Shown here: positions 5,633-56,178 of the stretch, piece by piece | Numbering within the stretch: the first letter of the stretch is position 1 | Layout: every line of letters begins with the position of its first letter | Notes under the pieces: model-generated | Told to the model about the DNA's origin: nothing | What the model saw: only the letters and a program-made list of their open reading frames with translations | The model's database searches: none | Position numbers and translations under genes: made by a program | IMG/VR virus record: IMGVR_UViG_3300014204_000115 | Location: 115,637-179,636 of that record | DNA from: a virus | Taxonomy: Duplodnaviria; Heunggongvirae; Uroviricota; Caudoviricetes | DNA: 64,000 bases | Strand: one strand, 5' to 3'

Positions 5633-5784
5633 TGTTTAAAAATTTAACAATAATGAGTATTATAAATCTTTTATTTATCTATGATTGTTTTTTCTGGCCT
5701 ATAGATTTTAGTAGAGATGCAAAATATTGGGGTGATATTTATGATGAGAGATGTAGTGGTAATACATATAGGGATAAAAAATAA
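5632..5784 (+). CDS. small hydrophobic protein (50 aa), tentative
   Basis: ATG overlaps the upstream stop (TAATG), GAGG RBS. The hydrophobic N-terminus is not in the ORF track (<60 aa). Confidence 0.3.
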   Translation: MFKNLTIMSIINLLFIYDCFFWPIDFSRDAKYWGDIYDERCSGNTYRDKK

Positions 5785-7311: not shown

Positions 7312-7469
7312 AATTATCCCGCCTAGTTAAAAATCAAAAAACATAAAAATCTAGATTGATTCTTGTAAGTTTTACGTCAATCCCAGATAATTTTAGAAAC
7401 TATTTTAATATTAAAGAACAAATTAATAGTAAATCAACTTATTATAAAAATTATAGGAGAGAAATATCA

Positions 7470-12717: not shown

Positions 12718-12724
12718 TTTAAAA

Positions 12725-22241: not shown

Positions 22242-22337
22242 ATATGAAAAAATAGAGTCTGATAAATTTAAAAAATTAAAGTTAAAAATGAAATAATCAA
22301 AGATATGTTATGGTTAGAATTAGAAGGGAAAAAATAA

Positions 22338-22478
22338 ATGATTAAATTTTGTCCAAATTGTGGAGAAGTTTTATCTAAAAATGTTAAATATGCAGAAGGT
22401 GTAAAATCTTGTAATACTTGTGAAGGAATATTTTTTATATTACAAACTAGCAAATCAATTCAACAAGAGGATAAATAA
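22338..22478 (+). CDS. small zinc-ribbon protein (46 aa), tentative
   Basis: MIKFCPNCGEV...CNTCEG (CxxC..CxxC). RBS GAAGGGAAAAAATAAATG. Below the ORF-track size cutoff. Confidence 0.4.
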   Translation: MIKFCPNCGEVLSKNVKYAEGVKSCNTCEGIFFILQTSKSIQQEDK

Positions 22479-22483
22479 AATAG

Positions 22484-22663
22484 ATGTCAGAAGAAATTTT
22501 AAAGATTGTTGTAAAAAAAGCACATGAAGTATTAGATGAGTTTATCTCAGAATGTATTGGTGAAGATGGAAAACCAAAAGCTCCATCTTATAAATCTCTT
22601 ATGAAAGTAAGAGGTTATTTACCAGAATCTTATAAAAATTCTATAATAAAGAAAAAGAGTTAA
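22484..22663 (+). CDS. small protein (59 aa), tentative
   Basis: ATG 5 nt after the previous stop; continuous ORF. Confidence 0.3.
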   Translation: MSEEILKIVVKKAHEVLDEFISECIGEDGKPKAPSYKSLMKVRGYLPESYKNSIIKKKS

Positions 22664-22734
22664 TGGAGATAAAATGCAGTTATTTACTCAGATACTACAA
22701 AGAGATGCATTAGAAGATGAAATAATTAGTAAGA

Positions 22735-23166
22735 ATGAGTAATTTTATGAGAAAATTAGAAGAATTTGCAGATTCAGAATCATATGATTTATTTTATAAT
22801 TTAATTGGAAAAGAATTAGTTTCAACAAGAAGTAGTGGACCAATAAGATTAAGAGAAGTCATAATACCAAAATGTTATGATATAAAATTTTTAAAGAAAC
22901 ATGGTAGAATGATAAGACTGGTTCTTTCTATTAAATATTCAGATAAGGAAGTAGTTTTTGGAAATGACTATCATGAAAGTTATAATGAACATCTTGATCT
23001 TCCATTTTCTTTAATAGAATCATGGTCTCTAAAAAAGATGAAAAATTGGGCAATTAAAAGGACAAAACAAGTAAGAGAAAAAGAGATTGAACGTTTACAA
23101 GATGAAATTATTCAAATTAATAAGAAATTAGAAGAACTTAAAAAAGCAGGAGATACTAAGAAATGA
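22735..23166 (+). CDS. hypothetical protein (143 aa), coiled-coil C-terminus
   Basis: ORF in tiling. Confidence 0.5.
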   Translation: MSNFMRKLEEFADSESYDLFYNLIGKELVSTRSSGPIRLREVIIPKCYDIKFLKKHGRMIRLVLSIKYSDKEVVFGNDYHESYNEHLDLPFSLIESWSLKKMKNWAIKRTKQVREKEIERLQDEIIQINKKLEELKKAGDTKK

Positions 23167-23399
23167 AAAAATATTTTTTATTTTTAATAATTATTCTTTT
23201 ATTTTGTTTAATAAGTTGTGATAATCATTATAGAAGATCCCTTTCATTCAATCTACCAAAAGAAGCAAAAATAATAAAAGAAGATCTATCTGTACCTGCA
23301 ATTTATTTTAAAATTGGAAAAAGATATTATATAAAAATTTTTAGTGGAAATGGATACTCAATTTTTGAAATAGATAAAGAGGTTATTAATGGACAATAA
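23163..23399 (+). CDS. small lipoprotein
   Basis: Signal peptide MKKYFLFLIIILLFCLISC with lipobox L-I-S-C. Confidence 0.5.
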   Translation: MKKYFLFLIIILLFCLISCDNHYRRSLSFNLPKEAKIIKEDLSVPAIYFKIGKRYYIKIFSGNGYSIFEIDKEVINGQ

Positions 23400-23829
23400 T
23401 ATAAAACAAGTAATTGTTATTAGAAAAGATCTTCATATGAGACAAGGAAAGTCATGTGCAAGTGCAGCTCATGCAAGTATGAAAGTTCTTCTTGATGTAT
23501 TAAAAGAAATACATTCTGTACCAAGAGGTGTCATTTTTGGTATGGAAATAACTCCAATAAATAATTTTCAAGAAAAAAATACAAGACAATTAGATTGTTT
23601 AGAAAAATGGATTAAAGGAACATTTACTAAAATTGTTGTTTATGTAAAAAGCGAAGAAGAACTTCTTGAAGTATTTAATAGAGCTAAAGATGAAGGGATT
23701 TTTTGCAGCCTGATTGAAGATGTTGGAAAAACTGAATTTAATGGTGTTCCAACCAAAACTTGTTGCGCAATAGGACCAGATGAATCAGAAATAATTGATA
23801 AAATAACTGGTAAATTACCTCTATTATAA
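23389..23829 (+). CDS. peptidyl-tRNA hydrolase, PTH2 family
   Basis: KQVIVIRKDLHMRQGKSCASAAHAS and C-terminal CCAIGPDESEIIDKITGKLPLL closely match the archaeal/eukaryotic Pth2 motifs (V.VR.DL.MGKGK.AAQ..HA; AIGP....IDKITG.LKLL). Confidence 0.8.
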   Translation: MDNNIKQVIVIRKDLHMRQGKSCASAAHASMKVLLDVLKEIHSVPRGVIFGMEITPINNFQEKNTRQLDCLEKWIKGTFTKIVVYVKSEEELLEVFNRAKDEGIFCSLIEDVGKTEFNGVPTKTCCAIGPDESEIIDKITGKLPLL

Positions 23830-23839
23830 GGATTTAAAA

Positions 23840-24094
23840 ATGAAAAAAATTATTCTTATAATTTTATTAGTATTAACTTTTTTATTAGTTTCATGTGATT
23901 TTTCACCTGTTGATCTTCCATATAAGTGTTATCAAACTGTTGAAAAAGAATTTCCTATAAATTCAAGAATAATGAATATACCAAGAGGTAATTATATTTT
24001 TATAGTAAAAACACCTGAAGGAAAAATTTGGTATGCAGAAACAATGGAAAGAAATTCTTCTAAAATAACTTATAAAGTTCAATTATTTGATTAA
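23840..24094 (+). CDS. small lipoprotein
   Basis: Signal peptide MKKIILIILLVLTFLLVSC with lipobox L-V-S-C. Confidence 0.5.
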   Translation: MKKIILIILLVLTFLLVSCDFSPVDLPYKCYQTVEKEFPINSRIMNIPRGNYIFIVKTPEGKIWYAETMERNSSKITYKVQLFD

Positions 24095-24098
24095 AAAA

Positions 24099-24140
24099 TG
24101 GCACTGAGATTTTCTTCTTAATCTCAGTGCCATTTTTTTG
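24099..24140 (+). terminator. Rho-independent terminator
   Basis: Perfect 12-bp stem tggcactgagat / atctcagtgcca with 9-nt loop, followed by TTTTTTT. Confidence 0.75.
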
Positions 24141-24217
24141 TTTATTATTTGTATAAAAGATAGAACAAAATATAAATTAGTAAGTTTATTTTTTGTTTAA
24201 AAGTGGAGGAAATTAAA

Positions 24218-24670
24218 ATGAAAAAGAAAGTATTTAAAGAAGACTTTCAAAGATTAGAAGAATTCATTCAAAAAATTAATAATATCATAACACCATTTTC
24301 CTTTCGTGATGAACTTAAAAGCGTAATGGATAAAGAAACTAGGATCAGAATGTCAGAGAAATACCCTAAATGTTATTTACCAGTTCGAATGGGTAATAAA
24401 GATATTCCATTTCTGCCTCTATGTAACAGAAATGGCGCAACTGATAAAAATATGATTTCTTTTTCTATGAAATTAGCTAATAGATTATTAGGAAGAGAAG
24501 ACGTTGATAGGGGAATGTTAGAAATAACTTTAAAGAAATTATCTAGAATGAATAATACATATTCAAAAGATATTCCAACTCCTCCTGGTCCAGCTTCACA
24601 AAAAGCTAATGTAACCAAGTCATTAATTTTACTAAAAAAGAATCTTGACAAAATAAAGAATGGTGAATAA
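24218..24670 (+). CDS. hypothetical protein immediately upstream of RNAP beta' (possible RNAP accessory factor)
   Basis: ATG at 24218 after GGAGGA (the ORF track starts at a GTG at 24203). Ends 1 nt before the beta' start. Confidence 0.45.
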   Translation: MKKKVFKEDFQRLEEFIQKINNIITPFSFRDELKSVMDKETRIRMSEKYPKCYLPVRMGNKDIPFLPLCNRNGATDKNMISFSMKLANRLLGREDVDRGMLEITLKKLSRMNNTYSKDIPTPPGPASQKANVTKSLILLKKNLDKIKNGE

Positions 24671-27600
24671 ATGTCCCTAAAATTTCTAGATTTAAATAAT
24701 TTTACAAGAAATTTAAAACCAGTAACAAGTACACAGACTCATACAAGAACAGATGAGTTTCATCCTCAAGGATTATTTTCCGAAATGATTTTTGGAGTAG
24801 AAGGTAGTTTAGATAGAAAGAAAACATTTTCATATATTGATTTAAATACATTTGTAATTCACCCTACTGCATATAGAATTCTTATCAGATTGGATAGAAA
24901 AATAGAAAAGATGTTTTCTACTGAAAAATCATTTAGATTGACAGAAAATGGTACATTAATAGAAGATGATAACGGAGTAACAGGAATTTTTGAATTTATT
25001 AAACTATTTCCAAAACTAATATTAAGAGGTGAATCTGAAGATAGAGATAAATTTATTAAAGTATTAAAAGATTCATATCAAGATCAAATATTATTTATAA
25101 ATAAAATTCCAATTATGCCTCCAGAACAAAGACCAATTTTTAAAGATAGCAGCGGAAGATACACACAAGATAAATTTAATGATTTTTACTTAACTATTTT
25201 AAGAAGATCAATACAACTTAAAACATTTGGGGCTAAAGGTACAATGTATGATCTATTAAATTGGGGATTACAAAGATCAGTAAATGATTTAGATGAATAC
25301 ACTAGAACAAAAATTGGTAAAAAATTTGGTTTAATTAGATCTCAGCTTCTAGGAAAAAGAACTGATTTCTCTGGAAGAGCTGTTATTACATCAGGTCCAG
25401 ATATTCCTGCAGATAAAATTGGAATACCTTTTAGATTAGCTATAACTTTATTTGAACCGTTTATAATTTATACACTTTTATATTCTGGAAAAATAAATAA
25501 AGATACTTTAGAAAAAGAAATAAAGAATTTTACAAAAACAGATTTATCCACAAATAGTATTGCAATTGTTTTAAAAAGTTTAAAATCTGGAGATGTTGTA
25601 CCTAAAAATTTATATGATATTTTCTTTAAGGCTGCAGTTTTGGCGTCTGAAAATAGAGTTGTTTTAGCAAAAAGAGATCCTGTTTTACATGCTGAATCAG
25701 TTCGAGCATTTTATCCTATCATAGTTCCTGGTAATACTATACAATTATCAGCTCTAGTTACAGGAGGATTTAACGCTGACTTTGATGGGGATACAATGGC
25801 AGTATTTCATCCTTTAACTATTGAATCACAAGATGAAGCAAAAAAAAGAATGATGATGGCTAGATCCTCTTCTTCATTTACAAGTATTACTTTTGAATTA
25901 AGTAAAGAAATGAGTGTTGGATTATATTTAATTACAAAAGATATTAAGGAATTTAAACCTCCTATTAGTGTTTCTAAAGAAGATTTAGAAAAAGCAATAG
26001 ATCCTTATACTCCAGTTATTTATAAAAAACAAACAACAACAATGGGAAAAGCAATTTTTAATAATTGTTTTCCTTCAGATTTTAGATTTATAAATGATTT
26101 GGTAACTAAAAAAATTGCTAATAAATTAATTTTTGAAGTTATTGATAAATATGGAGATGAAATTGGAAGACAAGTTGCATCTAATTTAAAAAATGTTGGT
26201 TTTAGATTCGCTAGTTTATTGGCACCTTCTTTAAATTTAAACGAAATTACAATTCCTCCTGAGATTTATGAATTAAAGAAAAATATGGATAAAGCTACAA
26301 CAGAAGAAGCAATTGAAATAATGGATAAAATGCGAAAAATAATGATTGAACATTTAAAAGATACAGGTTTATATAATTTAGTTGAATCAGGAAGTACTAA
26401 AGGATGGGATCAACCAATTCAAATTTTAGTTGCAAAAGGAATCATGGTAGATCCGACTGGAAAAATTCTTCCTCCTATTAAAGGTTCATTATCTGATGGT
26501 TTAACCACAACTGAATATTTTAATGCTGCTGGAGGAAGTAGAGCTGGAATCATTGATAGAGTTATCAATACTGCAGATACAGGATATACAGCTAGAAAAT
26601 TAGCTTATCTTTTAAACTCAGTAGAATTAGATTGGGTGTTAAAAGATTGTGGTACACAATTAACCTTAGATATAAAATTAGATCCAGATATTATTAGTAG
26701 ATTAAAAGGAAGATATATAGTAAAAAGAGGAAAATTAGAACTATTTGAACATTCTGGTTCAAAGTCTGGAGATTTAATTCATCTGAGAAGTCCAATTTTT
26801 TGTAAATCTTTAAAAATTTGTCATACTTGTTATGGAAAACTTTTAGAAATTCATAAAAGTCCTTATGTTGGAATTATTGCAGCATCAAATATTGGAGAAA
26901 GAAATACACAGCTTATTATGAGATCTTTCCATTCAACTGCAATTAAGATTATAACAAGAGATATATTAAAAGATATTTTTGATAATGATCCATTAGTTAA
27001 ATCCGATCAATTAAAAATAAAATTAAAACAGATGGAAAATAATTTGTATTGCACACAGGATTGTTCAATGACTATAGATTTAGATAGTTATGAATTAGGT
27101 GATGATATTACTATAAATGAAGAAGAAAATATAGTTGAAGCAAATGGTTTAATTTCTAGAATTGAATTTTCAGATTTATCATTTGATATAGTTCTTGATT
27201 ATCCAGTAATTATTAAATATGATAAAATAATTAAATCTAAAGAATTTATTAAAGTATCATTTAGAAAAGACGATGAAATTATTGAAGCTCCATTACAAAG
27301 ACAAGATTTAAAAGAAATTGTTTTATATGTCGAAAGATTAATTTCAGGTAAAGAAAAATTTAAAAGCATAGATCATTTATTTTTAAAATTTTACAAAATT
27401 TATAGCGACATTTCAAGTATGGATTTAGTTCATATGGAAGTATTAATTAGTCAGATTTTAAGAGATAAAAATAATCCAGTTTTCCCATCAAGAGTTGGAA
27501 AAGATCCAATGCATCCTGTATTAAGAAATATTAAAAAGAATGTTTTTAATAACGGAGGTTTGCTTCAAGGATTAGCTTTTGAAAATACATCAGCTGCTAT

Positions 27601-27700
27601 TAATGCAGGTTTAATAGCAACTACTGAATTAGAACCATCTATTTTAGAAAGATTATTAACAGGAACTTTAGTTGAGAGAAAAGATAAGGATAAGGATTAA
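24671..27700 (+). CDS. rpoC: DNA-directed RNA polymerase beta'-like subunit (1009 aa)
   Basis: Catalytic motif GGFNADFDGDTMAV. RAVITSGPDIPADKIGIPFRLAITLFEPF matches the beta' rudder/lid region. CHTCYGKL...GIIAASNIGERNTQLIMRSFH matches the beta' trigger-loop region. No N-terminal zinc-ribbon cysteines. Confidence 0.85.
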   Translation: MSLKFLDLNNFTRNLKPVTSTQTHTRTDEFHPQGLFSEMIFGVEGSLDRKKTFSYIDLNTFVIHPTAYRILIRLDRKIEKMFSTEKSFRLTENGTLIEDDNGVTGIFEFIKLFPKLILRGESEDRDKFIKVLKDSYQDQILFINKIPIMPPEQRPIFKDSSGRYTQDKFNDFYLTILRRSIQLKTFGAKGTMYDLLNWGLQRSVNDLDEYTRTKIGKKFGLIRSQLLGKRTDFSGRAVITSGPDIPADKIGIPFRLAITLFEPFIIYTLLYSGKINKDTLEKEIKNFTKTDLSTNSIAIVLKSLKSGDVVPKNLYDIFFKAAVLASENRVVLAKRDPVLHAESVRAFYPIIVPGNTIQLSALVTGGFNADFDGDTMAVFHPLTIESQDEAKKRMMMARSSSSFTSITFELSKEMSVGLYLITKDIKEFKPPISVSKEDLEKAIDPYTPVIYKKQTTTMGKAIFNNCFPSDFRFINDLVTKKIANKLIFEVIDKYGDEIGRQVASNLKNVGFRFASLLAPSLNLNEITIPPEIYELKKNMDKATTEEAIEIMDKMRKIMIEHLKDTGLYNLVESGSTKGWDQPIQILVAKGIMVDPTGKILPPIKGSLSDGLTTTEYFNAAGGSRAGIIDRVINTADTGYTARKLAYLLNSVELDWVLKDCGTQLTLDIKLDPDIISRLKGRYIVKRGKLELFEHSGSKSGDLIHLRSPIFCKSLKICHTCYGKLLEIHKSPYVGIIAASNIGERNTQLIMRSFHSTAIKIITRDILKDIFDNDPLVKSDQLKIKLKQMENNLYCTQDCSMTIDLDSYELGDDITINEEENIVEANGLISRIEFSDLSFDIVLDYPVIIKYDKIIKSKEFIKVSFRKDDEIIEAPLQRQDLKEIVLYVERLISGKEKFKSIDHLFLKFYKIYSDISSMDLVHMEVLISQILRDKNNPVFPSRVGKDPMHPVLRNIKKNVFNNGGLLQGLAFENTSAAINAGLIATTELEPSILERLLTGTLVERKDKDKD

Positions 27701-27702
27701 TT

Positions 27703-30700
27703 ATGATACAATTTAAATCACTAAGACAATATACTCATGTTGTTAATGGTATCAGATTTCCAAATAAACCCGGTCAAAATTTTGTTGTTACTTATTTTTC
27801 AGAAAATTCTAGTTTACTTGAAGATTATTCATTTTTAAATTTAAAATTAATAGATCTAAAAATTAATATAGTTCCATTTACAACAATTCCTAGAACAAGA
27901 TTAACACCTACTCTATTAAAATCATTTAAAAAACTAGGTTTAAATTCTTATCAATTAACTAATCAAGTACCAAGTGGAAGAAATGTAATATATGATTTAT
28001 CTCAATTTTTAAATGCAATTGATTATACATATAATCCATCAAATTATAGACAAAGATTAAATATGTTTATAAAAAATATTACTAATAGATCTTTTTCCGA
28101 ATTTAATAATTTTGAGAAAGTACTATTATATTCTATTAATTTAACAAAAGATAAGTTAAATAATTTTATTGACAGAAAATTTTTTCCAATAGTACAACAA
28201 TTAAAGGATGATTCATTTAGTTTTGATCATTTAATTTTATGTTTAATCACGCCATCAGGACCAAGATATAGATTATTAGTTAAAAATAGATCCTTTAAGT
28301 TTGAAAGAATAGTAACAATATTAAAAACAATTAAATTAGGTAATACTACAGAAGAAGTTAATGACATAGATACAGAAGAAGAAAATAATGCAGAAAAACT
28401 TGCAGATGAAGTAGTAAATAATATTCAAAATAATATTCTACCTAATAATAAAGATAAAGTAAAAGATGCAATTAAAAATTATCTTTCTAAAGATAATATT
28501 ACAAAAGAAAAAGTTATATCTAAAGAAGTATCTCCAAAAAGTATGAAAAAAATTGGAGTAGCATCTATTTTATATAAAGTAACTGGAGATTTAGATAAAT
28601 CTAAAAAAATTACAAATAATATTTCTGATAAGAATTTTAATAATGCTCTAAAAACTATAGATAAAAGATATTCTGATCAAATGTTACAAACTCAAAAACC
28701 AATTAATACATCAACTGATAATTTTGTTAAATCTTATGATACACCAAAAGCTGTAATTAAATCTCCATATCATTTATTTCAAAAAAGGTTGATAGACTTT
28801 GATATAAATCTCCAGAAAGATTTAGCTAATTCATTTAAAGTTCTTGAGACTAAAGAACTTCCTTTAAAAGTTGGTGAAATACAAATTGTAAATAGAAAAC
28901 AAAAAAATGGAGAAATTGAAAAATCTGATACTAATATAATTAAAACAGTATTGACAGATAAGGATGGTAATAATCATAACATTCAAATTGAAATTCCTAG
29001 AATTGATCCAAAGACTGGAACATTTAGAGTTAATGGTCAGAAAAAATGTTTAATCAATCAGATTGTATTATGTCCAATAACTTTTCCTAAAAAATTTGAA
29101 TCAAGATTTGAAAGTTCATATTCTATTTTTAGAATTAGAAGTAAAAGAACAAGAAATACAAAATATTTAGAAATTTTTATTGCTAACTCTTGGTTACCAT
29201 TATCTATATTATTATTTTATAGTTTTGGATTTGAAGAAACTCTTTCACAATATGGTATAAAATATAGAATAAGTTCAGATAAACCAAATAAAACTGACAC
29301 CTTTTATTCTAAAATTGATGGATCTAATTTTATTTATTTTGATGGTGTAAATAATGAATTAAAGGCAGAACTAATTAATTCATTTATAAATACAAAAGTT
29401 GACACATTAAAAATTAAAAAACCATTTGCTACTCAAGAATATTTCAATGATATAATTATTAGATTAACAGGAAGAGTAAATTCAACATTTTTAATTCTAT
29501 CAAATTTAGAAAATATTGTTGATCCTGTAGCAAAACAAGTTTTAATTAATATGCATCAACCATCTGTTTTAAAAGATATTATTTATTATATGTCTTTTAA
29601 AGTAATAACTGGATTTGTTCAAGATAGAAATGATATTTTAAACCAAAGAATTAGAGAATCAGAAGTATTAGTTCATTTAATACAAAAACAAATTTTAGCA
29701 GCTTATACGATTTATAAACAACAAATTTTAGCTGGTAATAAAAATGCAAAATTTGAAATTAATCAATCAAAATTATTAAGCGAATTTATTAGATCAGAAA
29801 TTGTTGCAAATATGGAGTATGCAAACCCAATAGAAGAAATGGCAGTTATGACAAGAATTTCACCTGTTGGAAAAAGTATCGGTGGTATTCCTGATAAAAG
29901 AGCAATTCAAAATGAAGCAAGAAATATACACCCATCTTATTTTGGAAATATTGATCCATTAGATACACCTGAAGGAGAAATGATTGGTATTTCACAACAA
30001 TTAGCTATCGGAGCTTCTATTAGTTCAGCAAGAGGTTTATTCTCAAAGAAACCATTTTTGGATAGTGAGAAATCTGGAATTTTATCAACATCATCCAATA
30101 TGATTCCATTTATAGAAAATAATGATGGTGCAAGAATTATTATGGCAACAAATCAAGCTAAACAGACGCTCCCATTAAAAAATCCAGAACCACCAGTTGT
30201 TAGATCTGGTTATGAATCATTATTAACAAATATATTATCTAATAACTTTATTAAAAAATCTCCATGCAATGGGAAAGTTTTAAAAATTACAGATGAGTCA
30301 ATTTTTATAATGTGTAGAGATAAAAGCATCAGAGAAATTTCTATAATTCCTGTTCATTTAAAATCAGGAATTGGAAAAGATACATTGAGTATTTTTAAAG
30401 TAATAGTAATACCAGGACAAATAGTTTTAGAAAATCAAATTATTGCAGAAGGAAGTTCTATTTCCAATGGAACAATTTCTCTAGGAAGAACTCTTTGTAC
30501 TGCAGTTATGCCATATAGAGGATATAATTTTGAAGATGGTATTGTAATCAACGAAAATTTAATAAATCAAGATAAACTAACATCTATTCATGGAATTATA
30601 GATGAAGTTTTAATTTCTGAAAATGATAGAGTTTTAGAAATTGCAAAAATTGGAACCTATCTTGAAAAAGGAAAACCTATTTTAAGAAAAACTATAGGTG

Positions 30701-31815
30701 AAATTGAACAACTTTTAGGATTTTCTGAAGAAGAAGGCGAAGAAGTAATGGGTCAACAATTTATTAAAAAAAGTCCAGGTGGAAGAATTGTTGACATTGA
30801 TGTATTTTCAAATTTAGATAATAATAAATTTCCAATTTTAAAAGATTTAATTGAAAGAACAAGAAGAAGATTTGGAACAACTCCGACTGAAAAGTTTTCT
30901 GTCAAAGGAAATTTAATTCAAGGTATTTTAATTAGATTTAAAATTGAACAAGAGTTAAGAATTAATCTGGGTGATAAATTAGCTAATAGATATGGAGCAA
31001 AAGGAATTATATCTTTAGTTGAACCAAACGAAATGATGCCCAGAACACCTTGGGGAGATTATGTTGATATCGTAGTAAATCCTGTTGGAATAATTGGAAG
31101 AAGTAATATTGGTCAGTTATATGAATTATATTGTGGTTTAATTTCTAGAGAGATTGGACAAAGGATAAGAAATTCTAAAAGTAAAAATCAAATTTTAACA
31201 TTAATGAAGAGCGTATATACCATTCTTGATGCATCAAAAAATAAAGAATTTTCAACAAGATTAATAGCAAATATAGCTGCTTTATCAGAAAGAGAATTTT
31301 TAATTTTAGTTAATCAAATAAAAACTACTGGATTTTCTCCAATTATAATTCCGCCATTTCAAGCTCCAAAACAAGATCAGATTAAAATGGCGTTAACTAT
31401 ACTAGGATTAAAACCGGGATATAATTTATTTCTTCCATATTATGGAACAAAAACTAAAAGTGAAGTTCCGGTTGGTTATATGTATTTTTCTGCATTGGAG
31501 CATAAAGCAGATGCTAAAGTATATGGAAGAAGTACAGGACCAGTAACAGGAAAAACTCTTCAACCTACATCAGGAAAAAGTAGAGAAGGTGGACAGAGAT
31601 TAGGAGAAGCTGATACATACTCATTAATTTCATATAATTGTCCAACTTTATTATCAGAATTGATGGGTCCATTAAGCGATGATTTATCTACAAAAAATGA
31701 AATCATTTCTGAAATTATACAAACAGGATCTGCAAAGTATAGAGATTCTAAAATATCTCCTGCTAAAGATCTGTTAAATTCTTATTTTGTCTCATTAATT
31801 TTGGAGAGAACATAA
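27703..31815 (+). CDS. rpoB: DNA-directed RNA polymerase beta-like subunit (1370 aa)
   Basis: YFGNIDPLDTPEGEMIGISQQLAIGAS, NRYGAKGIISLVEPNEMMPRT..VDIVVNPVGIIGRSNIGQLYE and GGQRLGEADTYSLISY correspond to conserved beta regions (..PIETPEG.NIGL.., .RHGNKGV.S.I.P.EDMP, GGQRFGEMEVWAL). Confidence 0.85.
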   Translation: MIQFKSLRQYTHVVNGIRFPNKPGQNFVVTYFSENSSLLEDYSFLNLKLIDLKINIVPFTTIPRTRLTPTLLKSFKKLGLNSYQLTNQVPSGRNVIYDLSQFLNAIDYTYNPSNYRQRLNMFIKNITNRSFSEFNNFEKVLLYSINLTKDKLNNFIDRKFFPIVQQLKDDSFSFDHLILCLITPSGPRYRLLVKNRSFKFERIVTILKTIKLGNTTEEVNDIDTEEENNAEKLADEVVNNIQNNILPNNKDKVKDAIKNYLSKDNITKEKVISKEVSPKSMKKIGVASILYKVTGDLDKSKKITNNISDKNFNNALKTIDKRYSDQMLQTQKPINTSTDNFVKSYDTPKAVIKSPYHLFQKRLIDFDINLQKDLANSFKVLETKELPLKVGEIQIVNRKQKNGEIEKSDTNIIKTVLTDKDGNNHNIQIEIPRIDPKTGTFRVNGQKKCLINQIVLCPITFPKKFESRFESSYSIFRIRSKRTRNTKYLEIFIANSWLPLSILLFYSFGFEETLSQYGIKYRISSDKPNKTDTFYSKIDGSNFIYFDGVNNELKAELINSFINTKVDTLKIKKPFATQEYFNDIIIRLTGRVNSTFLILSNLENIVDPVAKQVLINMHQPSVLKDIIYYMSFKVITGFVQDRNDILNQRIRESEVLVHLIQKQILAAYTIYKQQILAGNKNAKFEINQSKLLSEFIRSEIVANMEYANPIEEMAVMTRISPVGKSIGGIPDKRAIQNEARNIHPSYFGNIDPLDTPEGEMIGISQQLAIGASISSARGLFSKKPFLDSEKSGILSTSSNMIPFIENNDGARIIMATNQAKQTLPLKNPEPPVVRSGYESLLTNILSNNFIKKSPCNGKVLKITDESIFIMCRDKSIREISIIPVHLKSGIGKDTLSIFKVIVIPGQIVLENQIIAEGSSISNGTISLGRTLCTAVMPYRGYNFEDGIVINENLINQDKLTSIHGIIDEVLISENDRVLEIAKIGTYLEKGKPILRKTIGEIEQLLGFSEEEGEEVMGQQFIKKSPGGRIVDIDVFSNLDNNKFPILKDLIERTRRRFGTTPTEKFSVKGNLIQGILIRFKIEQELRINLGDKLANRYGAKGIISLVEPNEMMPRTPWGDYVDIVVNPVGIIGRSNIGQLYELYCGLISREIGQRIRNSKSKNQILTLMKSVYTILDASKNKEFSTRLIANIAALSEREFLILVNQIKTTGFSPIIIPPFQAPKQDQIKMALTILGLKPGYNLFLPYYGTKTKSEVPVGYMYFSALEHKADAKVYGRSTGPVTGKTLQPTSGKSREGGQRLGEADTYSLISYNCPTLLSELMGPLSDDLSTKNEIISEIIQTGSAKYRDSKISPAKDLLNSYFVSLILERT

Positions 31816-44761: not shown

Positions 44762-46075
44762 TTGGATACACTTATACCACGTTTATATAGAGAGTACGGT
44801 AAATATGTAAATCATTCTAGAGCATTTCCTTTAGATATTGATGGTTTAAAACCAGTTGAAAGACGTGTTTTATTATCAGCTTATACAATGGCTAGAGAAA
44901 AATTTGTTAAATCTGCTAGAGTTGATGGTAATACTTTGGGCAGATGGCACCCACATGCAAGTTCATATGGAACTATTTGTCAATTAGTAAGACAAGGATT
45001 TTTAGATGGACAAGGAAATTTTGGAAATGATGTTGGTGTAGAATCATCACCTCCTGCTGCAATGAGATATACTGAGTGTAGATTATCTAAACAAATTTTA
45101 GATATGTCTTTAAGATTGGTAGATTATGTAAAGTGGATTGAGGCGGAACTTGATGATGAACCTGAATACTTTCCAACGATGTTTCCTTTATGTTTATTAG
45201 GAAAAGATAGCACCACAGGAATTGGTTTTGGTTATAAAACTTTAATTCCTTGTTATGAAGTTAAAGATCTTAGAAACAGACTATTATTTCTATTGGGAAA
45301 GATAAAAGATAAACCAATAATTAAACCAATTTCAAATTGTAAAATATTATCTAATGATAAAGATTTTGAAAAATTATTAACAACCGGTAAGGGTCAAATA
45401 ACTTTTCAAGGAATTTTTAAGGTAGATAATCTAAGATGTAAAGCTGCTATTAGATCATTCCCTCCAGGTAAAAAATTTGAAAAAATTTTAGAGAAATTTG
45501 AAAAAGAATTAAATAATCAAGATATTGGTTGGATTGATGAATCTTCTTCAGAGAATGGTGGGACATATATTGTTTTTGAAGTATTAAAATCGAGAAATAG
45601 AGATGAAATATTTAAATCTTTTTCTAAAAAATTATCTGATGTAATGACTAGTACTATTACATTTGATACAGTAGTTGTAGATAATAAAACAAAAAATGTT
45701 AAAAATATGAGTATTGATGAAATGTTAGTTAATACTTTTAAGATTTATTTACAAGTAAATATGAATATGCTGAAAGAAAATGAAGATAAAATAATTAAAA
45801 CAATAGAAGAGGTACAATTATTAGAAAAAGTTAAACCATCTTTAAAAAAGTACATGAGTAATGAAGAACTTAGTATTGATCAAAGAATTGAAAATATTAG
45901 TTTAGAAATAAAAGAAGATAAAGATAAAATTAAAGATCTATTTCAAAAATATAGAATTACAAAACTTTTATCTTTTAAAGCTGACTTTGAAGATTTAAAT
46001 TCGAAATTAAACACAGTAAAAAATAATATTTTAAATATTGGTGATTTTGTGGTTGGACAATATGCCTCGTTATAA
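44762..46075 (+). CDS. type II DNA topoisomerase DNA breakage-reunion subunit (GyrA N-terminal domain-like; T4 gp52-like)
   Basis: TTG start after TAGGAGGTTAAATA. GLKPVERRVLLSAY, RWHPHASSYG and DGQGNFG match the GyrA/ParC winged-helix/active-site region. Confidence 0.75.
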   Translation: MDTLIPRLYREYGKYVNHSRAFPLDIDGLKPVERRVLLSAYTMAREKFVKSARVDGNTLGRWHPHASSYGTICQLVRQGFLDGQGNFGNDVGVESSPPAAMRYTECRLSKQILDMSLRLVDYVKWIEAELDDEPEYFPTMFPLCLLGKDSTTGIGFGYKTLIPCYEVKDLRNRLLFLLGKIKDKPIIKPISNCKILSNDKDFEKLLTTGKGQITFQGIFKVDNLRCKAAIRSFPPGKKFEKILEKFEKELNNQDIGWIDESSSENGGTYIVFEVLKSRNRDEIFKSFSKKLSDVMTSTITFDTVVVDNKTKNVKNMSIDEMLVNTFKIYLQVNMNMLKENEDKIIKTIEEVQLLEKVKPSLKKYMSNEELSIDQRIENISLEIKEDKDKIKDLFQKYRITKLLSFKADFEDLNSKLNTVKNNILNIGDFVVGQYASL

Positions 46076-46385
46076 TGGCAAATATTATGAATATAATGAA
46101 AATGAAAATAGAATAATTCTTCCTGGTCTATCTGAGGATGAAACTAGATATTTTCAATATTTACTAACTAGATCATTTAAAGAAATTACAGAAGAAAAAT
46201 GGAAAGATTTAACAATATTAAATCAAAAAACTTTAAAATTTATGTATGATAACCACAACCAAAAAATTCAAGAATCTTTAGGTTGTTTAGAGATTTGTCC
46301 ATCTTGTAATGAAAGATCATTAAAAGCTAAAATGAGTGGTATGGGATGTCTAAATCCAAAATGTGGATTTTTGGATTGTTATTAA
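46038..46385 (+). CDS. zinc-ribbon protein (115 aa)
   Basis: C-terminal CPSCN...CLNPKCGF. Confidence 0.45.
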   Translation: MVILWLDNMPRYNGKYYEYNENENRIILPGLSEDETRYFQYLLTRSFKEITEEKWKDLTILNQKTLKFMYDNHNQKIQESLGCLEICPSCNERSLKAKMSGMGCLNPKCGFLDCY

Positions 46386-46773
46386 AATGAATAATAAAAT
46401 ATTAGACAATCAACAAATTGGAAAATATACATATAAAATTTTAACTACAGACGAAAAAACTATAGAATTAGAAATCGGTGAAGAAATATGTCAGTCTTGT
46501 AAAGGAAAAGGTTTTAAAATAAGAGAAATTAACATTGATATTAAAGAACGATGTTGTGATTGTAATGGTAATAAAACTATTTTTTGGACACAAAAAATAT
46601 TTGAAAAACCAGTTCAAAGATATCCTGGAAATAATTGTTTTGAATACAATTTTTATACAATTATAAGATTATTAGAAAAAATGGCATATGAATCAGAGTA
46701 TGATTTTAGATTAACTTCTATGAATCTTAACACTAAAGAAACAAAAACATATACTTTTAGAGGTATTATATAA
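46363..46773 (+). CDS. DnaJ-type zinc-finger (CxxCxGxG) protein (136 aa)
   Basis: CQSCKGKG ... CCDCNGNK repeats. Confidence 0.45.
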   Translation: MDFWIVIKMNNKILDNQQIGKYTYKILTTDEKTIELEIGEEICQSCKGKGFKIREINIDIKERCCDCNGNKTIFWTQKIFEKPVQRYPGNNCFEYNFYTIIRLLEKMAYESEYDFRLTSMNLNTKETKTYTFRGII

Positions 46774-47171
46774 TGTTTTTAGTAACGAAAGTTTTTAGTT
46801 TTCCAATGGCTCATAGGTTAAGTAAAAATAACAGAGCGTGTCAATATTTACATGGACATAATATAATTGGAAAAGTAACAGTTAAATCAGAACAACTAAA
46901 TAATGAAGATATGGTAATGGATTTTTATGATTTGAAAAAGATAATTTCAGATATAATTAATTCATGGGATCACGGTCTATTTCTAAATAAACATGATAAG
47001 ATAATGCGTCCAGAGAAATGTAAATTATTTTTAACTGATTGTGATCCAACATCAGAAGCATTATGTAAAGTTTTATTTAATAAAATTGAAGAAGCTTTAC
47101 CAAAAAATGTAGAAATGCATTCTATAACTTTAATTGAAGCAGAGGGATCAGAAGCAACATACACAAGGTAA
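46773..47171 (+). CDS. QueD / 6-pyruvoyl-tetrahydropterin synthase family (T-fold) protein
   Basis: Zinc/catalytic motif CQYLHGHN (CxxxHGH) plus the N-terminal FSFPMAHRL His, at 132 aa. Confidence 0.7.
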   Translation: MFLVTKVFSFPMAHRLSKNNRACQYLHGHNIIGKVTVKSEQLNNEDMVMDFYDLKKIISDIINSWDHGLFLNKHDKIMRPEKCKLFLTDCDPTSEALCKVLFNKIEEALPKNVEMHSITLIEAEGSEATYTR

Positions 47172-48612: not shown

Positions 48613-48954
48613 ATGAAGATAAAATCTGATTTTGTAACAAATAGTAGCTCATGTTGTTTTGTATTAATTGGTTTTAAGATCCTTAATAATATAGAAAATG
48701 AAGAAAAAATTGAGAAATTTGATAATTTTTTTAAAGATATAAAAGATTGTTATTTTGGTTTTGGAGATGAGGGTGGCGCTCCAACAGAAGATGATATAAT
48801 AATTGGAAGAATTCTAATAGATCATTTAGATGATTATTTTGAGTATACAGAACTAGAACTAAAAATTGATCCTTCTGATATAATTAAAATTGCAAATTAT
48901 TTTGGGGTAAGTAATGATAAAATTAAATATATTTGTGGAAGAAGATCATGTTGA
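48613..48954 (+). CDS. paralog family member A (113 aa): conserved N-terminal MKIKSDFVTNSSSCCF module, divergent acidic body
   Basis: First of four tandem paralogs; RBS GGTGAATAAAGAATG. Confidence 0.6.
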   Translation: MKIKSDFVTNSSSCCFVLIGFKILNNIENEEKIEKFDNFFKDIKDCYFGFGDEGGAPTEDDIIIGRILIDHLDDYFEYTELELKIDPSDIIKIANYFGVSNDKIKYICGRRSC

Positions 48955-48963
48955 GGTAAAATA

Positions 48964-49299
48964 ATGAGAATAAAATCTGATTTTGTGACTAACAGTTCAA
49001 GTACTAGTTTTGTAATTTCTTGTAAAGAAAAAATAGAAGAATTAAAAGAGTCTCCTCTTCTTGATTTGCTTCAAGAACTTCTAAATATAATAATAGTAAA
49101 TTCAAATGGAGATAATTTAAAAGAACTTGTAGAACATTATGGATTAGAAGAAACTGATCAAGAATATATTGATATTTTAGAAGCAATAAATAATGGAGGA
49201 ACTATAATATATCTAAGTGTTCCCTACGGTGGAGAAATTTATTGCGTAGATAGATTTTTAAAAAAATATGATGGACAAATAATGTTAAGTGATGATTAA
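48964..49299 (+). CDS. paralog family member B (111 aa): MRIKSDFVTNSSSTSF
   Basis: Tandem paralog; RBS GAGGTAAAATAATG. Confidence 0.6.
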   Translation: MRIKSDFVTNSSSTSFVISCKEKIEELKESPLLDLLQELLNIIIVNSNGDNLKELVEHYGLEETDQEYIDILEAINNGGTIIYLSVPYGGEIYCVDRFLKKYDGQIMLSDD

Positions 49300-49301
49300 T
49301 A

Positions 49302-49658
49302 ATGAAGATAAAAAATGATTTTGTGACTAATAGTTCAAGCACTAGTTATTTAATTTGTATTCCTAGAAAATTTGATGTTGAAAAATTTGTTGGAGAAAGA
49401 CTTGTAGAAAATCCACATATTGAATCAGATAATAGTACAATTTTAGATTTAATTAAGAATAGTATTTTAGAGGGTTTTGCAATTGAAGAATATGATGCTC
49501 AACAAGAATTTCATAATTTAGCTGAAATTTTTAAAAAAGAGATAATTTTTTCTACTGATGTAGATTCTGAGCGAGGTTGTATTGATATAATTTTTACGGA
49601 TTCTTTAGAAGGAGAAATCAAATCAATCAAAGAGGAATTCTCTAAATATGAAAATTAA
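49302..49658 (+). CDS. paralog family member C (118 aa): MKIKNDFVTNSSSTSY
   Basis: Tandem paralog. Confidence 0.6.
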   Translation: MKIKNDFVTNSSSTSYLICIPRKFDVEKFVGERLVENPHIESDNSTILDLIKNSILEGFAIEEYDAQQEFHNLAEIFKKEIIFSTDVDSERGCIDIIFTDSLEGEIKSIKEEFSKYEN

Positions 49659-49974
49659 ACAAGATTTTGTAACTAACTCAAGTTCATGTTCATTTATAGT
49701 TTGTATTCCAGATGTGAATAAATTTTTAAATGAACTAGAGAAAGAATATGAACTACCAAAAGAAATAAAAGATAAATTTTTTAACCAATATGGTTATATA
49801 AGTTTATATGATTTAGAATATGATAGTTTTTGGAAATTACATCAATGTATAGATAAATTAGGTTATGTTATCATGTTTGATGAATCTGGATCTGAAAATG
49901 AGCCAAGATATTTAAATATTGCATTTAATAATGAACAAACCAAAAAATTAAAAAAAATATTAGGAGAATCATGA
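49648..49974 (+). CDS. paralog family member D (108 aa): MKIKQDFVTNSSSCSF
   Basis: Tandem paralog; start overlaps the end of C. Confidence 0.6.
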   Translation: MKIKQDFVTNSSSCSFIVCIPDVNKFLNELEKEYELPKEIKDKFFNQYGYISLYDLEYDSFWKLHQCIDKLGYVIMFDESGSENEPRYLNIAFNNEQTKKLKKILGES

Positions 49975-53788: not shown

Positions 53789-54151
53789 ATGAAAACTAAA
53801 CAAGATTTTATTACAAATTCAAGTTCAACCTCTTTTATCATAGCAGATAAATCAGGAAAATTAGATAAAATTTTAGTTAAAATTAATGAAAATCCAGAAA
53901 TAATTGTAAATATTTTTGAGATTTTAACTTTTGAAGATATTAGTCATAATGCATCTGATTATGGTAAAAATATCAAAGAAAAATATCATATTGATCAAAT
54001 AGTTGATAATGGTGGAAAAATTTATGAATTTATAGCTGGCGACCAATCAGGATTATTAGAAGCTGGTTTTTGTAATTATGGAATTTACGAAGAAGAAATT
54101 TCTGAAAATAAGGAAATAATTGAAATTATAAAAGGAGAAGGTGGATATTGA
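53789..54151 (+). CDS. paralog family member E (120 aa): MKTKQDFITNSSSTSF, detached fifth copy
   Basis: Same N-terminal module as the 48613-49974 tandem genes. RBS TAGGAGTTTATATTATG. Confidence 0.6.
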   Translation: MKTKQDFITNSSSTSFIIADKSGKLDKILVKINENPEIIVNIFEILTFEDISHNASDYGKNIKEKYHIDQIVDNGGKIYEFIAGDQSGLLEAGFCNYGIYEEEISENKEIIEIIKGEGGY

Positions 54152-54160
54152 TTTTTAAAT

Positions 54161-54487
54161 ATGAGACAATCTCAAGGATTTAAATCAACTAGAAAATATA
54201 AAGATATTAGAAGTTTTATTTGTATTTTATTTGGACAACCAGATTATACAGATCATATTTCAAATGGTGTTAGTTTTAAATGGTATTTACATAAAGTTAT
54301 AAAATATATACCAATAAGTCATAGAGGAAAAATTGTAGAATTTGCTTTACATTTATTATCTAATAAAAATATTAAAGCTGAATGTAAAATTTTAAGATAC
54401 AGTAATGAAATAAATGATGCTAATTTATTAAGTCTTTATCACACAAATCCTAGAGACAGTTTTAGAATTTTAGTGAGGAATCAATGA
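54161..54487 (+). CDS. hypothetical protein (108 aa)
   Basis: ORF in tiling. Confidence 0.45.
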   Translation: MRQSQGFKSTRKYKDIRSFICILFGQPDYTDHISNGVSFKWYLHKVIKYIPISHRGKIVEFALHLLSNKNIKAECKILRYSNEINDANLLSLYHTNPRDSFRILVRNQ

Positions 54488-54807
54488 AAACAAAAATATT
54501 TTATAGTATTGAAAATTGTGGAGATGGAAGCGCCTATCCAATATTTATGGAATCTGAAGAATTATGTATGATTGAACAAGAATTCATGGATGAAGGTTGG
54601 GGAGAACCTTGCATTGGTCATATTACAATTGAACATGATACACCAATTAAGATTAAAAATGAAATAAAAACAGTGGACGAAGTAATTGAAGAAACCGAAT
54701 TAAGAATAAAAGAATCTTGTGTATCAGAAAATAGCAAACATTTTCTTAGAAAAAAATTAGAAGAACTAAATAAATTAAAAAATCAAATGGTAATAGATAA
54801 TGAATAA
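54484..54807 (+). CDS. hypothetical acidic protein (107 aa) with three Cys
   Basis: ATGA overlap. C..C..C spaced through the N-terminal half. Confidence 0.45.
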   Translation: MKTKIFYSIENCGDGSAYPIFMESEELCMIEQEFMDEGWGEPCIGHITIEHDTPIKIKNEIKTVDEVIEETELRIKESCVSENSKHFLRKKLEELNKLKNQMVIDNE

Positions 54808-55834
54808 GATTCATATAGTTAATTGGTTATTAACTAGAAGATGTAATCTTCATTGTGATTATTGTAGAATTGTAAAAAATTATAAAACAAAACCATTATT
54901 ATATCCAGATATGAAATATTATATTGAAAATGAAATGTCTAGTCAAACTATTATTAATGGATTAGAAAAAATTAAAAATCATAATCCTAATGCATTTCAT
55001 ATTTTCTATGGCGGTGAACCTTTATTAAGGTTAGATCTTTTTGAAATTATAAATTATTGTAACAAAAATGATATTCATTATACAATAATTAGTAATAATA
55101 CTGAGAGAGTTCAACCTTTAATGAAAGAATTATTAAGAAAAGTAGATTATATTGAAGGTTTTACCGCTTCTATAGATCCAATTATTTATGATAAAAATAA
55201 ACATATGACTGATACATTTAAAAAGAGTTTAGCTGGTTTTAAAAAACTTAAAGAATATTCAGATATTATTAAGGATGTAGTTGCAGAAATAACTGTAACT
55301 AATGATAATCTTGAATATCTTTATCCATTAGTATCTGAGTTATCTGATTTTGGAATAAATAGTGATATAACATTTGTTGATATTTCTAAGTCTAAATATT
55401 ATGATTTTTCTGATGTTGAGGATGATTCTATTTTAGTAAGAAAAAGTCCAGAGTTAAAGGAAATATTAGATAAAATTATTAGCGAAAAACTTAATGTTCA
55501 TATGGCAGAAACTCTATTACCAATAATATATGAGAATCTTCCAAGTGAATATGATTGTAAATTAGAAAATGATTTTCATAATTTATGTGTAGATGCAAAT
55601 GGTAGCATAAGATTATGTTTGAGAATTAGAGGAACTGCTATTCCAGAAAACTTTAATCTCTCTAATCTATTTGATGAAAATAATAATCTAAATCAATATC
55701 TTAAATATTCAATTAATTATGATAAAAAAAATTATTGTTTAAAATGTAATCATAGTTGTTACATGATGTCAGAGTTAATATCTAAGGGAGAAGATAATTC
55801 TAATAATTTAATTCATACAGAAGTAAGGAAATAA
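54800..55834 (+). CDS. radical SAM enzyme with C-terminal auxiliary Cys cluster (SPASM/twitch- or MoaA-like)
   Basis: N-terminal TRRCNLHCDYC (CxxxCxxC). SAM-binding glycine-rich IFYGGEPLL. C-terminal NLCVDANGSIRLCLR and YCLKCNHSCYMM. Confidence 0.75.
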   Translation: MNKIHIVNWLLTRRCNLHCDYCRIVKNYKTKPLLYPDMKYYIENEMSSQTIINGLEKIKNHNPNAFHIFYGGEPLLRLDLFEIINYCNKNDIHYTIISNNTERVQPLMKELLRKVDYIEGFTASIDPIIYDKNKHMTDTFKKSLAGFKKLKEYSDIIKDVVAEITVTNDNLEYLYPLVSELSDFGINSDITFVDISKSKYYDFSDVEDDSILVRKSPELKEILDKIISEKLNVHMAETLLPIIYENLPSEYDCKLENDFHNLCVDANGSIRLCLRIRGTAIPENFNLSNLFDENNNLNQYLKYSINYDKKNYCLKCNHSCYMMSELISKGEDNSNNLIHTEVRK

Positions 55835-55869: not shown

Positions 55870-56178
55870 ATGAGATTATTTAGAGTTTATAGATTTAGAG
55901 CTTGTCATTGCGATAGAGAAGAATTTCCAGAAGAAATATTAATTCAAGGAAATAGTCCAGAAGAAATAGATAAAATTATTGAAAAAAGAAGAGAAGAATA
56001 TGAATATTCAGATGATTCTGAAAATTTAATAGATTTTGGAGACGAGCATCAACTTCAAGAAATTCTTTTCTTTGATGATGGTGTAGAAAATATTATTGAA
56101 AATGATAAGTTTAAAATTCTAAGTGAAGATGAACTATGTGAAGAGTTTCTAAATTTGAGAGATAAGAATGAGATCTGA
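55870..56178 (+). CDS. hypothetical acidic protein (102 aa)
   Basis: RBS AAGAGGGTATATG. N-terminal RACHCDRE. Confidence 0.45.
   Translation: MRLFRVYRFRACHCDREEFPEEILIQGNSPEEIDKIIEKRREEYEYSDDSENLIDFGDEHQLQEILFFDDGVENIIENDKFKILSEDELCEEFLNLRDKNEI

Follow-up and report, generated by a model that had tools for sequence, protein, structure and literature searches.

A conserved N-terminal module on small phage proteins is linked to radical-SAM/SPASM enzymes and to bacterial Avs2-like immune operons

The KpAvs2 operon, which encodes Avs2 together with the radical-SAM protein Avap1 and a small protein, Avap2, is a working anti-phage defence system (PMC11564622). Avap1 is required for protection against some phages (T2) and yields no viperin-type products, and its substrate is unknown. 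Avap2 binds Avs2 and matches DUF6375 by HHpred, and the roles of both accessories are unknown (PMC11564622). In a separate line of work, SPASM enzymes have been found to modify adjacent and often multi-copy ribosomal precursors by installing thioether, cyclophane or ether links (PMC10114670). Here we analyse a 64,000-nucleotide stretch of DNA, hereafter the window, from a Caudoviricetes record of IMG/VR (IMGVR_UViG_3300014204_000115, positions 115,637 to 179,636), in which five genes (copies A to E) encode small proteins that share a short N-terminal module and lie upstream of a radical-SAM/SPASM-class enzyme gene. The most informative new fact about this module is that its genes recur beside those of radical-SAM/SPASM enzymes and, in bacteria, within Avs2-like immune operons, which raises the possibility that the module is recognised or modified by the enzyme.

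The window is AT-rich (~25% G+C), and its forward strand holds nearly all sizeable open reading frames (ORFs), including the five module genes. Their starts follow the consensus M-K/R-I/T-K-x-D-F-V/I-T-N-S-S-S-T/C-S/C-F/Y, in which M1, K4, D6, F7, T9, N10, S11, S12 and S13 are invariant in the alignment, and a six-frame scan found the motif exactly five times, each at an ORF start, and nowhere else in the window. This bears out the original prediction, made from the sequence by a model, that five genes share an N-terminal module. Its description of the proteins as 108-120 aa, acidic and mostly Cys-containing also holds, as all five have an isoelectric point of 4.3-5.0 and one to five Cys. At the nucleotide level, 51 of 126 pairwise identical residues within the first 16 codons (40%) are specified by different codons, AGY/TCN serine switches included. 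This synonymous turnover indicates selection on the peptide and not on the DNA, as had been proposed, and led us to reject a conserved DNA or RNA element as an explanation for the shared N-termini. Likewise, the codon differences between copies rule out a recent repeat as the origin of the shared N-terminus.

The genomic setting of the module was assessed by clustering, without prior assumptions, all ORFs flanking module genes in 57 dereplicated IMG/VR locus groups, with 6-10 kb visible on either side of each locus. The module family itself recurs in 56 of the 57 groups, and the next commonest neighbour, present in 27 groups, is a radical-SAM/SPASM enzyme of ~358 aa (fam1). It is followed by a syntenic block of a helicase, PTPS/QueD, SbcD, SbcC and a second radical-SAM/SPASM enzyme of 348 aa (fam2, the family of the window's enzyme), each found in 19-20 groups (fam2 in 20). 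The two enzyme families are mutually exclusive and together cover 46 of the 57 groups (47 with locus L061), and the gap between enzyme gene and module gene is often 0-26 nucleotides (nt). A similar arrangement is found outside viral records. Among prokaryotes, sampled as one genome per species (185,579 species), there are only 75 DF[VI]TNSSS stretches, compared with 413 in IMG/VR; 39 of the 75 were confirmed, all from metagenome-derived assemblies, and in 34 of these 39 loci fam1 or fam2 directly follows the module gene.

The reciprocal test gave a consistent picture: module genes are present in 71 of 79 viral loci anchored on fam1, all 246 copies lie on the strand of the enzyme, and the exceptions are mostly truncated loci. 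In PLSDB, the module protein and a close fam1 enzyme coincide exactly, both being encoded by the same seven plasmids (five from Agrobacterium, one from Rhodobacter and one from Rhizobium). Across 50,697 deposited phage genomes, no relatives of fam2 were found and relatives of fam1 were only distant (~26% identity, 171 records), which argues that the module-enzyme linkage is not a background effect. In addition, the module differs with the enzyme family it accompanies, as position 4 is K only with fam2 and R or K with fam1, and position 14 is mostly T with fam2 and mostly S with fam1; these differences could be explained by shared ancestry too.

Both enzyme families resemble SPASM maturases. 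The window's enzyme matches Pfam Radical_SAM (8.7e-15), and the eight cysteines given in Table 1 are invariant. The best NCBIfam match of fam2 is the ranthipeptide maturase PapB (full length, residues 7-318). Further SPASM enzymes, peptide maturases among them, rank behind it, with all curated maturase models below cut-off. For fam1, a profile search of the PDB returned SuiB as the best match (1.8e-11, full length, over the radical-SAM and SPASM regions), with SkfB, PqqE, BtrN and anSME also matched, and the SPASM model TIGR04085 scored 7e-8. One of the distant fam1 homologs is encoded by Klebsiella phage Miro (L084, KT001919.1 91043-92197; 26% identity), carries a CX7CX2C motif and belongs to the T4-like Slopekvirus set of 171 records; no module gene lies near the Miro locus. 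A radical-SAM match on an E. coli plasmid was rejected as a relevant locus, being a lone gene in a Tn3 element.

In 31 of the 39 prokaryotic loci, the module gene sits in a common four-gene operon encoding, in order, a STAND NTPase, a module-less paralog, a module protein and a fam1 enzyme (Table 1). The NTPase matches Avs2 in PADLOC at 5e-22 and in NCBIfam at 1e-14 to 6e-17, the latter below cut-off, and the second gene is a paralog of the body of the third (hhalign 96%, E 3.9e-9). In the cultured example, plasmid pAt of Agrobacterium tumefaciens Ach5, the four products are WP_038496262.1 (SMEK-STAND), WP_038496259.1, WP_051489734.1 (MKLKMDFVSNSSSTSFIYI...) and WP_038496256.1 (radical SAM). 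The operons are often found beside restriction-modification systems or mobile elements, and one adjoins a type I restriction-modification system and a primase-D5 element. No model for the four-gene operon as a system is present in PADLOC 2023 or NCBIfam. On the phage side, no STAND-like family recurs among the neighbours of the 57 locus groups, which include the window; the window was not scanned for STAND directly.

Similar to KpAvs2-Avap1-Avap2 (PMC11564622), the bacterial operon combines an Avs2-like STAND NTPase, a radical-SAM enzyme and small proteins of ~130 aa. However, KpAvs2 has three genes and an Avs2 of more than 1,350 aa (PMC11564622), whereas here there are four genes and a STAND protein of ~830-930 aa. 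The accessories are likened to Avap1 and Avap2 by published description and not by sequence: PF19902 (DUF6375) had no HMMER match to any member, whether from phages or bacteria and whether module-bearing or not (Pfam at E<=10), the published link of Avap2 to this family having been made by HHpred. Profile searches started from the module-less paralog and from the bacterial module protein likewise gave no PF19902 match. A second comparison is offered by the FxSxx-COOH peptide arms of STAND/vWA-MoxR systems (PMC7159879), which likewise join a radical-SAM/SPASM enzyme, a small protein with a short terminal motif and a STAND-type NTPase. Their motif (FxSxx, RxD or acidic) is C-terminal and peptidase-released, whereas the module described here is N-terminal, of other sequence and expanded in phages.

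Table 1. The module copies and enzyme of the window, the genes of the bacterial operon and a cultured example of it
Feature	Coordinates	Strand	Description
Copy A	48613-48954	+	113 aa; module residues 1-18 (48613-48666) MKIKSDFVTNSSSCCFVL; body of a singleton class
Copy B	48964-49299	+	111 aa; module MRIKSDFVTNSSSTSFVI; body of the B/E class
Copy C	49302-49658	+	118 aa; module MKIKNDFVTNSSSTSYLI; body of the C/D class; 11-nt overlap with copy D
Copy D	49648-49974	+	108 aa; module MKIKQDFVTNSSSCSFIV; body of the C/D class
Copy E	53789-54151	+	120 aa; module MKTKQDFITNSSSTSFII; ends GEGGY; body of the B/E class
Radical SAM/SPASM-class enzyme (fam2)	54800-55834	+	344 aa; C15-x3-C19-x2-C22 plus C253, C273, C313, C316, C320; proposed partner/maturase
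Operon gene 1			STAND NTPase, ~830-930 aa; Avs2 match in NTPase region; variable N-terminal effectors (SMEK nuclease, trypsin-like protease, others)
Operon gene 2			~130 aa, without module
Operon gene 3			~135 aa, module protein
Operon gene 4			fam1 radical-SAM/SPASM enzyme
Agrobacterium tumefaciens Ach5 plasmid pAt (L124, NZ_CP011248.1)	20854-25306		Cultured operon example

The module reaches far beyond this phage. A 30-residue N-terminal profile (A4), run against 1.84 billion representative proteins clustered at 50% identity, matched 5,205 clusters at E<=1e-3 with scores of 52-87 bits, which places the module far beyond chance, and among the 150 matches listed the alignment starts at residue 1 in nearly all and the proteins are under ~220 aa, mostly 100-150 aa. 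With 5,205 clusters, this is among the larger protein families without any annotation, and the module is one of the most strictly conserved short motifs findable. The original prediction had not recognised it as a described family, which our searches bear out, and had suggested searching metagenomic phage proteins for the module start. Scans of the five copies and 92 diverse relatives against Pfam, PHROGs, NCBIfam and PADLOC yielded nothing more than phrog_7397, a family of unknown function that was matched weakly at the N-terminus, and the 92 diverse members hit no consistent Pfam family. Among the 50,697 deposited phage genomes, blastn with the region and tblastn with copy D, P0109 and P0087 gave no relatives, in searches whose low-complexity filter may mask the Ser run. 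In the literature, the motif string was matched by unrelated acronyms only.

In almost all of the 83 loci compared, viral or metagenomic, the module genes form same-strand tandem arrays of one to ten copies per 20 kb, the largest array having ten (L043), and the 4+1 arrangement of the window is typical of these loci. Given the linkage to the enzyme, K-x-D-F-[VI]-T-N-S-S-S at an ORF start beside a radical-SAM gene can serve as a rule for finding such loci. One array, on a jumbo-phage contig of ~210 kb from a different lineage (L004 1113-7090), lies among genes for tRNA nucleotidyltransferase, RNA ligase, RlaP and a NADAR-domain protein, and RlaP is found near module arrays in 11 locus groups.

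AlphaFold2 models of copies D and E, built with family alignments, divide the module between a coil and the start of the fold. Copy D was modelled with a predicted local distance difference test (pLDDT) score of 86.8 and copy E with 89.7, and in both the mean over residues 1-10 is 48, with residues 7-11 of copy D below 50. The coil covers residues 1-14 of copy D and 1-12 of copy E. The first strand (15-18 in D, 13-20 in E) falls within a stretch of mean pLDDT 82-89, and only residues 1-12 are predicted to lie outside the fold. The full-length models did not match a known enzyme fold of the nucleotide-binding, PP-loop or HUP type with the motif as its first strand-loop, and a sequence search of the PDB with the module profile found no chain carrying the module. 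The models of D and E therefore do not bear out the refuting case raised alongside the original prediction, in which the motif would merely be the opening strand of an ordinary, known fold common to all copies.

Beyond the module, the copies were described as having unrelated bodies, a view that stands for direct comparison but only in part once metagenomic intermediates are taken in, although a single tag on several unrelated bodies is still a broadly fitting picture. Body-only pairwise BLAST among the five copies is non-significant (best E 0.004 over 27 residues). A profile search of the family returned 484 relatives, none with a Pfam domain, and body-only single linkage among the best 120 of these joins B with E in one cluster (59 sequences, many ending GEGGY) and C with D in another (51 sequences), in each case through metagenomic intermediates. 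The body of copy A has no relatives beyond itself among the best 120, and profile-profile comparison does not join the B/E and C/D classes (hhalign E 0.25). The five genes of the window thus hold at least three body classes, as judged by sequence, and not five unrelated bodies. Diversity is wider still in the family, since 227 of 297 module proteins gathered from viral loci belong to neither class. The B/E class is homologous to the module protein of the bacterial STAND operon (hhalign 96.6%, E 5.3e-10), and body profiles found no module-less paralogs in the window. A few database proteins (P0136, P0137 and P0139) carry two modules each, the second internal (for example at residue 180 of 288), and are likely read-through or fused tandem copies. 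P0139 and a class of ~197 aa (L071 9051-9644) have Cys-rich, zinc-ribbon-like bodies.

Phage and bacterial contexts of the module have a single partner in common, the radical-SAM/SPASM enzyme. Because no other partner is shared, because enzymes of its class modify adjacent precursors and because the module is predicted to form a free N-terminal tail, we read the tail as the recognition or modification site of the enzyme, and we give this reading roughly an even chance. The module, 16-18 residues long, would then be the common handle of small proteins that act with a dedicated radical-SAM/SPASM enzyme. A flexible tail (residues 1-12, M-K-x-K/R-x-D-F-V/I-T-N-S-S) would project from a small fold whose first strand begins at S13-F16, insert into the radical-SAM barrel and be modified within the invariant D-F-V-T-N-S-S-S; in the models, the N-terminal position and predicted coil suit such threading. 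The chemistries of SPASM maturases comprise cross-links (cyclophane, ether, thioether), epimerisation and Ser oxidation. From general knowledge of the class, candidates here would be a cross-link of F7 or F/Y16 with T9 or N10, a Thr/Ser ether, epimerisation or Ser oxidation. The variable body would give each paralog its own target or role, the bodies being interchangeable functional cargo. In bacteria, the module protein, its module-less paralog and the enzyme would be accessories of the Avs2-like STAND immune NTPase. Phages would have kept the enzyme and expanded the module proteins to tandem arrays (five here, up to ten elsewhere), presumably as host-takeover or counter-defence effectors.

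This arrangement recalls the SPASM maturases of RiPPs, peptides made on the ribosome and modified afterwards (streptide SuiB/StrB, sactipeptide SkfB, ranthipeptide PapB, PqqE; PMC10114670). The enzymes share with these a CxxxCxxC motif and a C-terminal Cys-rich SPASM/twitch region, and in both cases the enzyme gene is linked on the same strand to small genes that have a terminal segment in common and differ elsewhere (PMC10114670). In contrast to those systems, the conserved part here is the first 16-18 residues, which are likely a reaction site rather than a cut-off leader, and the module has no conserved Cys. Compared with a maturase-precursor pair, the enzyme core and auxiliary Cys motif are present and adjacent co-oriented genes recur, more weakly for fam2, whereas the precursor is no short peptide in which a leader is removed from a modified core. 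The original prediction had likened the locus to the leader/core layout of modified peptides near a radical-SAM gene; of its three analogies this one fits best and the genomic coupling stands, but the partners are folded and there is no short-peptide leader. Another of the three, diversified anti-defence effectors, may also apply. No RRE domain, protease or exporter was noticed beside the enzyme, the neighbours not having been screened for them. We read the arrangement as one of a SPASM maturase with clustered substrates; these would be folded proteins that bear the reaction site in an N-terminal tail and have been expanded in phages.

Several observations weigh against the tail being the site of the enzyme, a reading that draws on gene neighbourhood and enzyme class. 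The case is weaker for the window's own fam2 enzyme than for fam1. Only 42 of 80 fam2-anchored loci contain the strict module, or 47 of 80 when a profile-level module within 6 kb is counted, and the gene immediately upstream of fam2 is a module-family protein in 32 of 78 cases and SbcC in 11, the rest being singletons that include the window's ORF at 54484-54807. Because fam2 belongs to the conserved helicase-SbcCD block, part of its linkage to the module is plain synteny. In the window itself, copy E is the copy closest to the enzyme gene, 651 nt upstream, with two unrelated small ORFs in between, and copies A-D are 4.8-6.2 kb away. In addition, a minority module subfamily with the body ...DKFNGMLKDYIK... 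is followed by a conserved ~370-aa protein that is not a radical-SAM enzyme (L089 10389-11507, L090 1302-2414, L119 5064-6146) and whose N-terminus is PIN-like by eye. The partners, folded and 100-150 aa long with confident models, are unlike the 20-60 aa peptides that are the known substrates of SPASM maturases, and thioether formation, the commonest chemistry, is unlikely because the module has no invariant Cys. Finally, the invariant columns of the module carry no covariation signal, and the low AlphaFold2 confidence of the tail may reflect this and not disorder.

The same gene-linkage data would fit a docking or adaptor peptide, in which the unmodified module links the variable bodies with a conserved partner (the radical-SAM enzyme, or else some other common factor), so that each body brings a target to the enzyme or carries the activity of the enzyme elsewhere. 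The module is always N-terminal and predicted to be exposed, the bodies are extremely diverse, with over three quarters of the viral copies outside the two classes of the window, and the small KpAvs2 accessory Avap2 acts by binding (PMC11564622). We nevertheless consider docking unlikely, as small polar residues (T-N-S-S-S) that stay invariant across thousands of clusters point to a reaction site more than to a docking strand, and the enzyme is the sole partner that phage and bacterial contexts share. Alternatively, the module could be an integral element of the small proteins, such as a ligand, metal or phosphate loop, an oligomerisation or swapped strand, or a self-processing site, with the enzyme linked only as a member of the same pathway, for instance as the producer of a small molecule bound by the module. 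Ligands or anions are typically bound by side chains such as D, T, N and S, residues 13-20 form a confident core strand, and the low confidence of residues 1-12 is no proof of disorder; moreover, the PIN-associated subfamily lacks an adjacent enzyme and 40% of fam2 loci lack a module gene. However, the same tail is carried by at least three unrelated body classes and so does not form a single active site with the body, the paralog in the bacterial operon has lost the tail and kept the body, and no known fold or motif was matched. These points make an integral element improbable in our judgement.

Far less probable is the capsid targeting suggested by the original prediction, in which the tail would direct cargo into the prohead and be clipped by the prohead protease before the cargo is injected with the DNA. 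In the T4 internal proteins (IPI/II/III, Alt), as here, diverse small proteins from a variable phage locus carry an unchanging N-terminal tag, and the resemblance of a tag, variable small acidic cargo and a tandem array is a formal one; T4-like replication genes (topoisomerase II, SbcCD) also lie nearby. Nonetheless, an equally conserved module is present in bacterial plasmid and chromosomal operons, among them those on plasmids of Agrobacterium, Rhizobium and Rhodobacter and on large contigs of metagenome-derived prokaryotic assemblies, beside a STAND NTPase and without capsid genes. The prohead-protease-type cleavage site (L/I-x-E) that was looked for after the module is not conserved, as no residue exceeds ~30% at positions 19-24 in 220 copies. 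The second half of the module (residues 13-20) is predicted to be the first core strand, so the tag is not dispensable for the fold, and it shows no sequence similarity to the T4 tag as quoted in that prediction. On these grounds capsid targeting is not supported as an explanation.

If the tail is indeed the recognition or modification site of the enzyme, the module proteins would provide a testable candidate substrate for the radical-SAM accessories of Avs2-type immune operons. Modification of the tail would carry SPASM-maturase chemistry beyond short peptides to the ends of folded proteins, and would represent a phage-encoded post-translational modification system serving up to ten paralogs per genome. 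It is tempting to speculate further, though we hold this only tentatively, that the tail is the substrate of a new radical-SAM/SPASM protein modification on both sides of the conflict between phage and host. On the bacterial side, the small protein, as the substrate of an Avap1-type accessory, would once modified control or arm the Avs2-type, NLR-like sensor, and phages would have captured the enzyme and diversified the tail proteins into arrays of modified effectors or decoys against this or other defences of the host.

The remainder of the window offers several further observations. The helicase, PTPS, SbcD, SbcC and radical-SAM block to which the enzyme belongs is syntenic in ~20 viral locus groups, and the window's PTPS/QueD-like gene (46773-47171, +; 7e-30) follows two small Cys-rich ORFs (46038-46773), one of which has a weak match to the DnaJ CXXCXGXG zinc finger. 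Downstream of the enzyme, a 204-aa ORF (56168-56782, +) shows a weak match around DLDPYG to TRM, the tRNA N2,N2-dimethylguanosine methyltransferase, and a methyltransferase (Methyltransf_32) is also found beside module genes in the unrelated jumbo-phage locus L004 (9381-10004). Adjacent ORFs of 1,009 aa and 1,370 aa (24671-27700 and 27703-31815, +) match phage multisubunit RNA polymerase beta-subunit families, and the source, a record of ~180 kb, is by these matches a large phage with its own predicted RNA polymerase. The large subunit of ribonucleotide reductase (7356-10718, +; 1,120 aa) contains an HNH endonuclease-like segment at about residues 422-632, with reductase matches on both sides, which suggests an intein or a homing-endonuclease insertion. 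Lastly, two paralogous ORFs (5784-6902 and 12692-13849, +) belong to a family present in 8 viral locus groups, with a Cys-rich N-terminus and repeated KG(L)TKETN-like motifs, and may represent a homing-endonuclease-like element.

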